The translations under genes and the position numbers were made by a program. A model generated the notes under the pieces. It saw only the letters and a program-made list of their open reading frames with translations, was not told where the DNA came from and made no database searches. Below are positions 17,934 through 22,499 of a DNA stretch of 64,000 bases, piece after piece; position 1 is the stretch's first letter, and each line of letters starts with the position of its first letter. Origin of the DNA: Dictyostelium discoideum (Eukaryota); contig CM000153.2 in the NCBI GenBank assembly GCA_000004695.1, positions 832,001-896,000 of the forward strand, written 5' to 3'.

Positions 17934-18518
17934 TTATAATAAATTACAAGATTTCTTTTTTTTAATTGGTTGATCAGTATTTTGTTCTTGAGAATTTGAA
18001 TGTTGATTTGATTGACGAGCTTTTTTAACTTCTCTAACAAGTTCATAAAAAGATTCAGAAACATTGATTCTTTCTTTGGCAGAGGTTTCCAAGAATTTAC
18101 AGTTTAACTTCTTTGCCAATTCTTCACCTTCGGCGGTTGAAACTTCACGATATTCATTGAGATCACATTTATTTCCTACCAATACGAATGGTACTGAATC
18201 TAAATCTTTTACTTTCAAAAGATGATTATGTAAACGATGAATCTCTTTAAAACTTTGAAGATATGTAATTGAGTAAACGCATAGAAATCCCTCACCTGTA
18301 CGCATATATTGATCCCTAACCGCACTGAAATCTTCTTGACCTGCGGTATCATAAATATCTAATAAACACTCCTCTCCATCAACTGTTGTTTGCTTTCTAT
18401 ATGAATCTTCTAATGTTGGATCATATTCATCCACAAATTTTTGTGCAATAAATTGAATTGTTAAACATGATTTACCAACACCACCTGGTCCAACTAATAC
18501 TAATTTAAAATTAAACAT
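17934..18518 (-). CDS. Ras-family small GTPase, 194 aa, single exon, with polybasic-CAAX tail KKKKSCNLL (geranylgeranyl type).
   Basis: G1 motif GPGGVGKS, effector region [13 protein letters not shown]3 DTAGQE, G4 GNKCD, G5 ETSAK. Confidence 0.85.
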
Positions 18519-18595: not shown

Positions 18596-19050
18596 AAAAA
18601 AATTAAAAAATTTATATATGATACAAGTTTAAACTATTATTATTCGATATATAATAGTTGTAGTAGTGTTTAGGTAATGTGATTTAATTATTAACAGTAA
18701 TTTTGATTATATACTGTGATGATATTAATATGGTTTTTTTGTTTTTTTTTTTTCTGGAGGTGATTTGAATTCAAATAAAAAGTAAATAAATAAAAAAAAT
18801 AAAAAAAATAAAAAAAACAAAAAAAAAAATAAAAAAAATTAAAAAAAAAAAAAAATTTTATCAAAAAAAAAAAAAAAAATTTAAAAAAAAAAATAAAAAA
18901 ATAAAAAAATAATAAAAATTTTATCAAAAAAAAAAAAAATTAAAAAAAATATATTGTTGTGGTGAGGAGTTTTGTTTTGATTGCTTAAACTTTTGGTGGT
19001 TAGATAAAGAGATAGATAGATAGAGTCGGTTATATCTAGATTTCAATATG

Positions 19051-19114
<64 letters not shown>

Positions 19115-19424: not shown

Positions 19425-19742
19425 TTAATGGGCTTTATTTGAAGAAGTGGAAATTAGAGCGGCATTTAAAAGTGGTTGTTGTTGGAAATAATCATTATCA
19501 CCCATTGAATTGCCAAGTGCCCAATCAGCAGAATCAAAAAATTTTCTTCCATGTATTCTTTGATTCATTAACCCTTTCTTTTGTAAACCAGAATATTTTG
19601 GATTTGTTGGAGGTGGGGTTAAATGATTATCATTTTTATTAATTGAAATAATTGTATTTATAGTATTATTTGTTGAAGTTGTATTTGTAGTAGTAGTGTT
19701 ATTACTATTATTTGAATCGTTATTTAATTCTAATTTTGACAT
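19425..19742 (-). CDS. Small protein (105 aa) with an endosulfine/ARPP-19/Igo-like core. Candidate PP2A-B55 inhibitor.
   Basis: The segment LQKKGLMNQRIHGRKFFDSADWALG matches the endosulfine consensus (KRLQKGQKYFDSGDYNMA), including the Greatwall-site serine in FDS. It has a poly-Asn/Thr N-terminus. It is the only ORF in the 18.5-22.1 kb region. Confidence 0.5.
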   Translation of the reverse strand: MSKLELNNDSNNSNNTTTTNTTSTNNTINTIISINKNDNHLTPPPTNPKYSGLQKKGLMNQRIHGRKFFDSADWALGNSMGDNDYFQQQPLLNAALISTSSNKAH

Positions 19743-20288
19743 TTTTTTTTTTTAATATAATAATTTGAATATTTGAAAGGTTGGAATCGGAATTTATAGT
19801 TAAAATTTAAATTATTTATTTTTTTTTTTTATAAAAGTACAGTTAAAGTTATTGTATATTTGTTTTTGAAGAGGTGAATTATATAGTTATTGTAATATAT
19901 ATATGTATTATATAAAGGTTTTTTTTTTTTTTTTTTTTTTTGAATTGAATTGAATTGAATTAATTTTTTTTAATAAATAAAATATTGTACAGAATTTAAA
20001 AGGCTGAAAAAAGAAAAAAAAAAAAAATAAAAAATGAATATTAGAATTTTGAGTTTAAAATTATTATTATTGGGTTATTATTATTTGTTTAAAAGAATGA
20101 AAAAATTTTTGTTTGAATTGCTTTTTAAATTTATAAATTTTTTTTTTTTTTTCTTTAAATTAAATTTAAAATATTAATATTTACAATACACGTTGGCAAT
20201 ATTCGGTGTAAAAAATAAAAATACCACAAAAAAACATAAAAATTTAAATTTTTATATATATGTGTGGGTATTTTAAGACAACAAATTT

Positions 20289-20338
20289 TGTGTGTGTATG
20301 TGTGTGTATATGTGTGTGTGTGTGTTTGTTTATGTGTA
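20289..20338. repeat. (GT)n / (TG)n dinucleotide microsatellite.
   Basis: tgtgtgtatgtgtgtgtatatgtgtgtgtgtgtgt. Confidence 0.9.
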
Positions 20339-22023
20339 TTATTACAAATTTGAGAGGGAATGAATTAATACATTAAATTACAATTTTTTATTTATTTATT
20401 TTTTTTTTTTTTTTTACAATTTATTTTTTTTAATTTGGAAAATCGTCATTATAGTTAGTTATTTTAATTAATTTTTTATTATTTTTTATTATTTTTTTGT
20501 TATTACTATTTTTTTAAAATAATTTTGTGATAATGATGATTTTATGTTTATATATTAAAATTTTAATTTTGTGTCATAAAATATCTTTTGATCTGTTGTG
20601 TCACCATTTTTTGTGGGATTTTTTTTAGTGTGTGGGAAGTACATGAAATTTAAACATTGCCTAAAAAAAAAAAATAAAAAAAAAATAATAATCCAACTTA
20701 TAAAAAAAAAACTTTTCAATCGACTTTATTTAATTCAATGAAAAAAAAGTTCAATTGGTTAAAACAAATAAAATCATATTGTCGTTATGATTCTATTTTT
20801 TTACCTTACCTTCTCTTAATTTTGAGAATTAATAAAAAAAGAAAAAAAAATTTTAATCTGTTTTAATTAATAAAAAAATAAAAAAAAAAAAAAAAAAACA
20901 TTAAAAAATAAAAATAAAATAAAATAAAATAAAAAAAAAAAAAATAAATTAAAATTAAAAAATAAAAAAAAAAAAAAAAAAAAACAATGAGAATCTCATG
21001 CGATTACAATTGTTTAATTTAAAGGAAATTAAGAAAAATATGTCGAAATCTCATTTCCTTTTAAACTTGGAAAGTACAAAAAAAAAAAAAAATAAAAAAA
21101 AAAATTAAAATAAAAAAAAAAAAAAAAAAGATATTTTTTTGATTGATTAGATAAATTAATAAATTATTTTGGATTTTATTATTTTTTTTTATTTTATATT
21201 TATTTTATTTTTATTTTTATTTTTATTTTATTTTTTTCAATACAAATAAAATATAATATTTCAAGTATTCTATTAAAATTACAATAAAATGAATATTCAC
21301 ATAAATATTCTTTAATTATTTGAAAAGTAAATAAAATAACGTTAAAAAAAAAAAATCTATTTAAATTCAAAATTAAAAAGTTTTTTTTTCAACTTCCAAG
21401 CAAAGAATAATCGAGTATTTTATTACTTAATTAAAAAAAAAAAATAAAAAAAAATAATAATAATAAAAATAATGGTTAAAATAATAAACAAAATAATAGA
21501 AAACTTTAATAATAAAGCCAAATTGAATATGGTTTTATTATTTTAATTAAAATAAAAAAAAAAATAACCAATTAAATTTTTTTTTTTTTTTTAATATTAG
21601 AAATAATAGAAATATTAAAATCAAATTTACAATTGTAAATTTTATTTTTATTATTTCTATTATTATTCAAAAATTAAGTTGATTTGATTGATTTTAATTA
21701 ATAAGAATTGGTAAATATTATTTTCTTTTTTTTTTTTTTTTTTCCGAATAATATTTGAAATTTCGACCAATTTTTTTTTTAACATTTTGCTCTAATTAAA
21801 ATCTTATAAGAATTTTTACCAACACCTATTATGGAGGTAATATTAAAAAACTTTATTTTTTTATTTTTTTATTTTTTTGATTGAAGTGTTTATTTCCATT
21901 TTTGAAATTTTTGTTAAAAAGTTATTTGATTTTAAAATTAATATATTTCGTGTGGGCTATATTTTTTTTTTTTTTTTATTTTTTTTTTTTTTATTTTATT
22001 TTGTTTTATTTTTTTTTTTTTCG

Positions 22024-22062
<39 letters not shown>

Positions 22063-22107
22063 TTTTCATTTTTTCATTCACATCACTAAACACATCAATC
22101 AAATAAA

Positions 22108-22233
22108 ATGTTAGGTCGTTTAATTAAAGATACCACTCAATTTGTCAAATCCTCAACCAAATTTGGTATTGTTTGGGGTCCAAAACTTGCCCCATGGGGT
22201 ATCACTTTAGGTAAGAGAGCTTCATCAATGATT

Positions 22234-22265
<32 letters not shown>

Positions 22266-22499
22266 GTCAAATGACACAGCGCAGATAGCAGAAATGAATA
22301 TTTGATTTTAAAATTTATTTAATTTATATTTTTATTTTTATTTAAATTGGAAATTTTCATTTTATTATTAGGGCTCGGGGCTTTTTACTTTTTCCAACCA
22401 AAATTTTTATTCAAACCCCTTCCAATCATTGGTAGCAACTATCTCACTCAAAAAGATCTCGATAAAATGAAAAAAGAAGCTGCTGAAAACAGTCAATAA
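22108..22499 (+). CDS. Small two-exon gene encoding a 76-aa single-pass membrane protein. Possibly a mitochondrial-complex subunit. Unidentified.
   Basis: Exon 1 is 22108..22210 (MLGRLIKDTTQFVKSSTKFGIVWGPKLAPWGITL, donor GTAAGA, phase 1). The intron is 161 nt. Exon 2 is 22372..22499 (GLGAFYFFQPKFLFKPLPIIGSNYLTQKDLDKMKKEAAENSQ*). It has a hydrophobic core with a GxxLGLG motif. Confidence 0.5.

Follow-up and report, generated by a model that had tools for sequence, protein, structure and literature searches.

An endosulfine-family gene of Dictyostelium discoideum and the AT-rich spacer on its 5′ side

Endosulfines include ENSA and ARPP19 of animals, in which the Greatwall–ENSA–PP2A module acts at mitotic entry, and Igo1 and Igo2 of yeast, in which the Rim15–Igo–PP2A(Cdc55) pathway governs starvation responses (PMC4072559). 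This report concerns DDB_G0283571, a small gene of Dictyostelium discoideum that was compared with these systems, and the 2365-bp spacer upstream of it. Both lie in a stretch of 64,000 nucleotides from D. discoideum strain AX4 (contig CM000153.2, positions 832,001 to 896,000 of the forward strand), which is called the window here and to which all coordinates refer. The analysis favored, with a probability of about three in four, a joint reading in which the gene is the single D. discoideum ortholog of endosulfine, its product would by homology be a Ser71-regulated inhibitor of PP2A-B55, and the spacer is ordinary promoter DNA.

The closest system described in structural detail is the PP2A:B55–tpARPP19 complex, which was studied by cryo-electron microscopy and mutagenesis (PMC10765524). 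In that study, ARPP19 residues 25–41, including Y36, bind B55, and Y36 is needed for the B55 pull-down. Helix alpha3 (F48-L-R-x-R52-L53-x-K55) lies on the B55 platform, R52A and L53A being the single mutants that do the most damage. A kink is formed by Y59 and F60, while D61, pS62 and D64 bind the active-site arginines of the catalytic subunit, PP2Ac. Farther along the chain, residues 86–98 make up the "crossover" and residues 106–112 bind a distant pocket of B55 (PMC10765524).

The gene and its family

The gene consists of one ATG-to-stop open reading frame (ORF) of 105 aa that carries the motif KFFDSADW, as had been described in the original prediction, a reading of the DNA letters alone. 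That reading had also counted it among the small genes that are easily missed. In fact, the ORF matches exactly EAL65663.1, XP_639025.1 and UniProt Q54QV9, all of which stand for "hypothetical protein DDB_G0283571," and it was thus already annotated, though unnamed. The gene, the parts of its product and its downstream neighbor are located as follows.

19425–19742 (stop codon included), minus strand: coding sequence of the endosulfine homolog (DDB_G0283571, 105 aa, single exon), from the ATG-to-stop ORF, the exact database match, Pfam and synteny
19629–19742, minus strand: N-terminal Asn/Thr-rich low-complexity region, aa 1–38, rich in indels in alignment A1 and of variable length between species
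19500–19583, minus strand: endosulfine core, aa 54–81, QKKGLMNQRIHGRKFFDSADWALGNSMG, with a putative B55-binding helix, an FF kink and the phospho-acceptor motif, from Pfam and hhalign
19521–19544, minus strand: KFFDSADW, aa 67–74, in which the Ser71 codon (19530–19532) is the predicted Greatwall/Rim15-type phosphorylation site
19428–19478, minus strand: lineage-specific C-terminal tail QPLLNAALISTSSNKAH, aa 89–105, outside the Pfam match (model positions 49–80 unmatched)
17934–18518, minus strand: rasS, the downstream neighbor, from its ORF and a database match; used as the neutral-rate reference

The assignment to the endosulfine/ARPP-19 family, which had come with the proposal of a family-profile search, was borne out by that search. 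Pfam PF04667 (Endosulfine) matched aa 54–81 over model positions 21–48 of 80 with 30.9 bits against a gathering threshold of 29.8 (E=2.9e-7), and the same domain is precomputed for all six closest homologs, which are all Dictyostelium orthologs. When a dictyostelid profile was run by hmmsearch against 1.84 billion representatives, 33 proteins were recovered at E<=1e-3; ten of these 33 were scanned with PF04667, and all ten matched it at E<=2.2e-5, with six scores beyond the gathering threshold. The matches included orthologs from Heterostelium, Acytostelium, Tieghemostelium, Synstelium and the myxogastrid Echinostelium, as well as a Salvia "cAMP-regulated phosphoprotein 19-related protein" in which FDSADWALG is identical, and a protein of an oomycete that has five repeats of RKRFDSADY. 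Because FDSADW also occurs in a plant and an oomycete has FDSADY, the Dictyostelium motif is a normal variant of the family motif. It is a counterpart of the Greatwall site, as had been proposed, since hhalign places Ser71 on ARPP19 Ser62, but FDSADW is no peculiarity of Dictyostelium. KFFDSADW fits the family pattern (K/R)(Y/F)FDS(G/A)D(Y/W), with Asp at -1 and +2 of the phospho-acceptor Ser. Collectively, these comparisons supported at the level of sequence that the ORF belongs to the broad endosulfine family (ENSA/ARPP-19/Igo). It is filed under the broad family, and not under the animal or yeast subtype, because the C-terminal crossover, the tail and the RKxS motif of those proteins are absent.

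At least 11 amoebozoan genomes or transcriptomes yielded orthologs, one of them a Trinity transcript of Echinostelium, and an endosulfine gene is called in every other dictyostelid annotation examined. Five other Dictyostelium genomes contain syntenic single-exon orthologs with the synteny to rasS kept, and the whole gene order of QCR10-like gene, spacer, endosulfine gene and rasS is kept in D. cf. discoideum, D. citrinum, D. firmibasis and D. dimigraforme (the four sister species below). DDB_G0283571 is an ordinary ortholog of a well-known family, already present in the databases with the Pfam domain attached.

Conservation of the product is concentrated in the core and the tail. In alignment A1, H40–G77 (HLTPPP.NP.YSGLQKK.L.NQR.HGRKFFDSADWALG) and the C-terminal QPLLNA.LI..NK.H hardly vary, and the length of the Asn/Thr-rich N-terminus is free; core and tail are largely invariant across the Group 4 species. 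In alignment A2, which holds nine amoebozoan sequences, F69, D70, S71, A72, D73 and W74 are invariant, as are Y50 and L53. The tail is identical in five Dictyostelium species, and its pattern LLN(P/A)AF...K(V/A)H recurs in the Heterostelium, Acytostelium, Tieghemostelium and Synstelium orthologs. Over 38 core codons, AX4 differs from four close species by 4 to 9 synonymous and 2 non-synonymous nucleotide differences, and from D. purpureum by 14 synonymous and 9 non-synonymous ones. By these codon counts, the protein core is under purifying selection.

Two minor features of the AX4 protein and its orthologs were observed. AX4 carries Thr46 and Ile63 in place of the Ala and Leu found in each of the five other Dictyostelium orthologs, and these are the sole two non-synonymous core differences of AX4 from the close species; the Leu of the relatives at position 63 is also the residue of ARPP19 L53, a key B55 contact. 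In the D. dimigraforme ortholog (L002 6001–6366), the poly-Asn N-terminus is expanded to give a protein of 121 aa, compared to 100–107 aa in the other close relatives, which indicates that the low-complexity region changes length fast while the core stays fixed.

Comparison with described endosulfines and the proposed mechanism

The amoebozoan alignment was compared with human ARPP19 by hhalign (E=1e-4, probability 57%, 35 columns), and ARPP19 residues 31–70 were covered. The residues correspond as follows, with ARPP19 named first and the Dictyostelium protein second.

Element that binds B55: Y36 to Y50; L39 to L53
First part of the helix: F48 to L58; L49 to M59; R50 to N60
Second part of the helix: R52 to R62; L53 to I63; K55 to H64
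Kink: Y59 to F68; F60 to F69
Phosphorylation site: D61-S62-G63-D64-Y65 to D70-S71-A72-D73-W74

The Dictyostelium helix (L58-M-N-Q-R62-I63-H64) keeps the hydrophobic positions and the central Arg-(Leu/Ile) of ARPP19. By this alignment, the Dictyostelium protein keeps the residues of ARPP19 that bind the active site and those B55 contacts that matter most. Like human ARPP19 and ENSA, it is small and has a KY..L element, a putative amphipathic helix with the central Arg-(Leu/Ile), an aromatic kink and an acidic-Ser-x-acidic-aromatic site, which reads FDSADW in Dictyostelium and FDSGDY in the human proteins. Compared to human ARPP19, it is five residues shorter from the KY..L element to the helix and one residue shorter in the kink. 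It is without the GDHIPTPQDL crossover, the C-terminal VASKLAG tail for the B55 pocket and the RKxS site for protein kinase A (PKA), and it adds a poly-Asn/Thr N-terminus and the lineage-specific C-terminal tail.

The plant ARPP19-related protein (Salvia splendens KAG6402670.1, P0033) shares FDSADWALG and the KY-G-(L/M)-x-KK spacing with the Dictyostelium protein, to which it is 52% identical over 31 residues by BLASTP (E=6e-8). However, the Salvia protein covers PF04667 positions 6–78 of 80 (150 bits, two copies summed), while the Dictyostelium protein covers just 21–48. Yeast Igo1 and Igo2, which are Rim15 substrates and PP2A-Cdc55 inhibitors, belong to the same family and have the same phospho-serine site; Igo1 has in addition a C-terminal PKA site, S105, which the Dictyostelium protein is without (PMC4072559). 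The other amoebozoan orthologs, from Heterostelium album (PPL_06352), Acytostelium subglobosum, Tieghemostelium lacteum (DLAC_03354), Synstelium polycarpum and Echinostelium bisporum, are all labeled hypothetical. They are 74–100 aa long and have NPKY-GL..QRLH..KFFDSADW as in AX4, and the dictyostelids among them add the C-terminal LLN(P/A)AF..K(V/A)H. In Group 4 species, AX4 among them, the sequence is ...ADWALGN and the Asn-rich N-terminus is longer, whereas the other dictyostelids and Myxogastria have ...ADWVLNG.

In the proposed mechanism, a MAST/Greatwall-lineage AGC kinase would phosphorylate Ser71 in KFFDS71ADW, by analogy with the animal and yeast pathways. The candidates are DDB_G0272282 and pkgA, two MAST/MASTL-like kinases of D. 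discoideum with long T-loop inserts (PMC12024977). The phosphoprotein would dock on PP2A-B55, the candidate B subunit being phr2aB-alpha, which is among the PP2A B subunits of D. discoideum (PMC3128529). The LMNQRI helix and Tyr50 would be placed on B55 and Asp70, pSer71 and Asp73 in the catalytic site, so that the protein would serve as a tight-binding and slowly turned-over pseudo-substrate inhibitor of PP2A-B55, with the amoebozoan-specific tail LLNAALI...NKAH in place of the crossover, the B55-pocket tail and the PKA site. The setting may be either mitotic entry, as in animals, or the passage from starvation to development and sporulation, as with Rim15–Igo in yeast. Yeast, like Dictyostelium, passes from growth through a starvation program to spores, and a nutrient-linked role is plausible by this analogy. 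As a tentative extension, to which we would give rather long odds, the amoebozoan endosulfines could be variant inhibitors whose tail stabilizes the complex in another way or recruits another partner, and the module could tie starvation signaling to the change from growth to development and sporulation, as Rim15–Igo does in yeast, beyond a part in mitotic entry alone.

Several observations weigh against the joint reading. PF04667 was passed by a margin of only 1.1 bits and with the core alone (model positions 21–48 of 80), and the hhalign probability was just 57% over 35 columns, with an ARPP19 query of which residues 46–112 agree with the fragments in PMC10765524. PDB sequences were searched both by the dictyostelid profile and by the core peptide, and neither search recovered ENSA or ARPP19. 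Two basic B55 contacts of ARPP19, R50 and K55, are replaced by N60 and H64, and the three C-terminal elements of ARPP19 named above are absent. In the literature, no phosphorylation, binding or expression data were found for DDB_G0283571. As for the spacer, the five genomes that were compared are too close (neutral identity 0.84–0.95) to exclude small constrained elements. The PDB searches returned just an SGNH hydrolase and importin-alpha; these matches were rejected as spurious, the core being too short for such searches.

The same weak points are the ground on which other explanations of the protein can be built. The marginal Pfam score and the AT-rich, low-complexity N-terminal third might suggest that the ORF arose by chance or is a pseudogene in decay, its FDS-type motif being an accident. 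This explanation is effectively refuted by the orthologs from at least 11 amoebozoan sources, the synteny, the excess of synonymous over non-synonymous differences in the core and the invariant F69–W74, and hardly any weight is left to it. Unlikely, but to be taken more seriously, is the explanation that the gene is real and conserved while its product, having kept no more than a short ancestral motif, is no Greatwall-regulated inhibitor of PP2A-B55 and acts, for instance, as the substrate of another kinase or through partners other than PP2A. The family resemblance extends over only about 30 residues, the equivalents of R50 and K55 and the whole C-terminal half that binds B55 and PP2Ac are absent, and the conserved lineage-specific tail suggests a different partner. 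Moreover, Dictyostelium is without a clear-cut MASTL and has just early-diverging MAST/MASTL-like kinases (PMC12024977), and yeast endosulfines act also on Dhh1 and Ccr4, a link between Igo1 and mRNA-decay factors being reported (PMC4072559). However, the residues that are kept are those placed in the active site of PP2Ac and on the platform of B55, and residues 19–75 of human ARPP19 have been assayed as a separate phosphorylated fragment (PMC10765524). In addition, plants, oomycetes and amoebozoans all retain the core, which speaks for an interaction that has been conserved.

Given an endosulfine that inhibits PP2A-B55 as the preferred reading of the protein, DDB_G0283571 can be renamed from "hypothetical protein" to a candidate endosulfine-family inhibitor of PP2A-B55 with a defined predicted phosphorylation site, Ser71. 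No paper on DDB_G0283571, on a Dictyostelium endosulfine or on the string FDSADW was found in the literature. The gene would offer a small single-copy handle on the Greatwall–ENSA–PP2A module in Dictyostelium, in which growth, mitosis and starvation-induced development separate easily. Which parts of the inhibitor are essential could become clearer from the absent C-terminal half and the lineage-specific tail. The truncated architecture with its lineage-specific tail is mildly novel, nothing else is, and the practical value is modest.

Tandem copies of the core motif were observed elsewhere in the family. Two proteins of the oomycete Lagenidium giganteum (P0018 and P0020, 554 and 521 aa) contain five RKRFDSADY units, three environmental proteins (P0017, P0024 and P0045) contain two or three KYFDSADW units, and the Salvia protein P0033 (233 aa) contains two complete domains. 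Multivalent inhibitors of PP2A-B55 would be unusual, and some of these proteins could be fusions of gene models.

The head-to-head spacer

Since the endosulfine gene runs on the minus strand, the adjoining AT-rich stretch lies upstream (5′) of it and not downstream. The "downstream desert" that had been described is therefore the 5′ side of the gene, shared head-to-head with a plus-strand gene that starts at 22108. Its A+T content, put earlier at more than 90%, was measured as 86.4% (GC 13.6%), and other intergenic tracts in the window have 11.5–15.7% GC. The absence of ORFs was confirmed, as none of at least 60 aa begins at a start codon; there are low-complexity ORFs of 40–70 aa alone, and the longest stretch free of stops, of poly-F/K type, extends over 80 aa. 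The repeats are real as well and comprise (TTGAA)x5.4, (TG)x24.5 and many poly-A/T tracts. A self-blast of the non-repetitive parts against the window found no copies of repeats or transposons.

The claim of unusual length was correct in part. Dictyostelium intergenic regions have a mean of 678 bp, are mostly below 1 kb and exceed 80% A+T (cited second-hand from PMC5391098), and the spacer is about 3.5 times the published mean and the longest head-to-head spacer in the window; it is not unique, as the window contains a second spacer of about 2.0 kb. The length of 2365 bp is long, yet the spacer must hold two promoters. It shares with typical Dictyostelium head-to-head spacers a GC content of about 13–14%, homopolymers and microsatellites, GT/CA-rich boxes, a lack of ORFs and an oligo(dT) run before the start of the plus-strand gene. 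The second spacer (27922–29956) is likewise ORF-free, AT-rich and head-to-head; it has a G-box cluster at 29365–29381 and is flanked by a first exon that encodes a signal peptide (27727–27921, minus strand) and by the gene of a 470-aa multi-pass membrane protein (29957–31369, plus strand).

The elements located in the spacer are as follows.

19743–22107, no strand: head-to-head intergenic spacer between the endosulfine and QCR10-like genes, 2365 bp, GC 13.6%
19940–19965, plus strand: (TTGAA)n, equal to (GAATT)n, microsatellite of 5.4 copies, from a repeat scan
20084–20104, no strand: short block TTTGTTTAAAAGAATGAAAAA found in five species, a candidate transcription-factor site, from the alignment; run statistics no higher than in the neighboring spacer
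20182–20209, no strand: conserved block TACAATACACGTTGGCAA..TATTCGGTGT, from strict blastn (D. firmibasis 88.9%, D. citrinum 85.1%) and the alignment
20261–20337, plus strand: GT-rich block, TGTGTGGGT and an imperfect (TG)24 tract ((TG)x24.5 at 20289–20337), which fits the GBF consensus
20589–20618, minus strand: conserved block TGATCTGTTGTGTCACCA (five-species word 20589–20606), abutting the DUSE-like TCCCACAA, from the alignment
20717–20831, no strand: cluster of short conserved words CAATCGAC, AAAATCAT..TGTCGTTATGA and TTCTCTTAATTTTGAGAATTA, from blastn and the alignment
21036–21053, no strand: conserved word AAATATGTCGAAATCTCA, of which ATGTCGAA is common to five species, from blastn and the alignment
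21592–21668, no strand: imperfect AT-rich palindrome or hairpin of 77 nt, centered on the perfect 20-mer AAATTTACAATTGTAAATTT, from a structure scan
21962–22107, plus strand: oligo(dT) tract and leader before the QCR10-like ATG, presumed core promoter and 5′ untranslated region (UTR)

Conservation of the spacer was judged against rasS. No gene is called inside the orthologous spacer in the annotated genomes of the four sister species, where it measures 2333, 2024, 1740 and 1190 bp. Permissive blastn against the sister loci was swamped by low-complexity matches, and a DUST-masked strict search and a MAFFT alignment were used instead. The strict search recovered collinear islands with 80–94% identity to the sister species. 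These islands were considered as candidate noncoding RNAs (ncRNAs) or enhancers and rejected, since the 4-fold sites of rasS are equally similar in the same pairs (identity of AX4 to sister species 0.84–0.95), which puts the islands at about neutral divergence. They are best taken as stretches of neutrally diverging DNA that are free of repeats and can be aligned. Of the AX4 spacer positions, 39% are present in all species of the five-way alignment, and of these, 61% are invariant compared to 73% at the rasS 4-fold sites. Invariant runs of at least 8 nt number 5.5/kb in the spacer and 6.6/kb in the neighboring 0.9-kb spacer between the endosulfine gene and rasS. The locus of D. purpureum (4-fold identity 0.64) could be followed to the end of its contig, 184 bp upstream of the gene.

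Certain parts are kept throughout. The segment 22003–22107 is kept in all five species, as is the position of the GT-rich block with its (TG)n, the exact sequence and length of which differ. The words common to all five species (20084–20104, 20589–20606, 20811–20831 and 21036–21053) are not statistically outstanding; they are plausible transcription-factor sites on the evidence of the alignment. The likely content of the spacer is ordinary regulatory DNA, that is, two core promoters at the ends and a few short blocks. Most of it would be unconstrained, the conserved words and GT-rich boxes being plausible transcription-factor sites within expandable low-complexity DNA. On present evidence, the spacer has a typical composition and no special significance, and its description as a desert gains little support.

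A hidden RNA gene was also looked for. ARAGORN found no tRNA or tmRNA in the whole window, and Rfam 15 at gathering thresholds gave no match there; at relaxed thresholds, the matches in the region had E >=2.3 and scores far below the thresholds of their families. Class I RNA genes have a DUSE ([AT]CCCA[AT]AA) about 60 nt upstream, a conserved 11-nt CCTTACAGCAA-type motif and a terminal stem (PMC3188802, PMC7919456). The Class I 8-mer CTTACAGC has no match in 19743–22107, even with one mismatch. DUSE-like words (WCCCAHAA) number 13 in the window, compared to 25.75 expected by chance; the single one in the spacer is TCCCACAA at 20611–20618 (minus strand), and about 60 nt downstream of it the DNA is AT-rich and poorly conserved, with no conserved or structured RNA candidate. 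The hairpin at 21592–21668 has a minimum free energy of -20 to -22 kcal/mol on either strand, with z of about -5 to -7 against dinucleotide shuffles. It is the second most stable of 1053 AT-rich 100-nt scan windows, and values of -20 to -23 also occur at four further intergenic loci. Of the sister species, D. cf. discoideum and D. citrinum have it, and D. firmibasis and D. dimigraforme do not. Its nearly exclusive A-U pairing and its symmetry on both strands mark it as a DNA palindrome. The other signals of the z-score scan were rejected, as they reflect pairing of A-tracts with T-tracts and not true palindromes.

The suggestion that the spacer "may hide ncRNA or regulatory DNA" thus came out differently for its two halves, as ordinary regulatory DNA is likely, while no ncRNA test was positive (Rfam, tRNA, DUSE, Class I, structure or constraint). 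A small ncRNA gene, either a microRNA-type hairpin at 21592–21668 or a DUSE-driven RNA downstream of TCCCACAA, would draw on the rank of the hairpin and on the exact DUSE-like word that abuts a conserved block. It is nevertheless very improbable, as Rfam, tRNA and Class I searches gave no match, DUSE-like words are below chance, and the hairpin is a symmetric A-U palindrome that resembles those at four other intergenic loci and that two of the four sister species do not have. A better case can be made for specific developmental enhancers, by which the spacer would be long owing to GBF-type G-boxes and five-species blocks that give one flanking gene stage- or cell-type-specific expression, its interior then being working regulatory DNA and no mere filler. 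The consensus of the response element for GBF, (T/G)G(T/G)G(T/G)G(T/G) (PMC2257962), is matched at 20261–20269, 20289–20325 and 20629–20635. GTGTGGG occurs five times in the window, compared to 1.09 expected, and three of these are in the spacer, all on the plus strand. Across all five species, the GT-rich block stays in place and several words of 8–21 nt are invariant. However, the spacer holds 3 of the 31 GBF consensus clusters of the window (P=0.11), similar boxes are present in many other spacers, and GTGTGGG was picked after it had been seen here. Invariant runs are no denser than in the neighboring 0.9-kb spacer, conservation is below that of 4-fold sites, about 800 bp (~21140–21980) are missing in D. 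dimigraforme, and 21520–21780 is missing in D. firmibasis. Such enhancers are possible but doubtful, and ordinary promoter DNA is preferred.

The individual positions of GTGTGGG are 20262, 20630 and 21950 (plus strand), 29374 (plus strand) and 32519 (minus strand). Four of the five are in the two longest head-to-head spacers, and those four are all on the plus strand.

The neighboring QCR10-like gene and the 3′ side

The gene on the other side of the spacer was reconstructed from its splice sites.

22108–22499, plus strand: two-exon gene of 76 aa, weakly QCR10-like; exon 1 22108–22210, intron 22211–22371 (GTAAGA...TATTAG), exon 2 22372–22499

Pfam QCR10 (cytochrome bc1 subunit 10) matched its product with 18.1 bits, below the cutoff of 27.5, and both exons are 86–98% identical in the sister species. 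The gene is called in D. firmibasis (75 aa) and not in the annotations of D. dimigraforme, D. citrinum and D. cf. discoideum, where the uncalled exons are still 94–98% conserved. The small gene missed by annotation pipelines is this QCR10-like gene, not the endosulfine gene.

On the 3′ side, a non-repetitive block, GATAGATAGAGTCGGTTATATCTAGATTTCAATATGTAT, lies at 19015–19053 between the endosulfine stop codon and the start of rasS. It has 83–91% identity in three sister species and could belong to the 3′ UTR of the endosulfine gene or to the rasS promoter.

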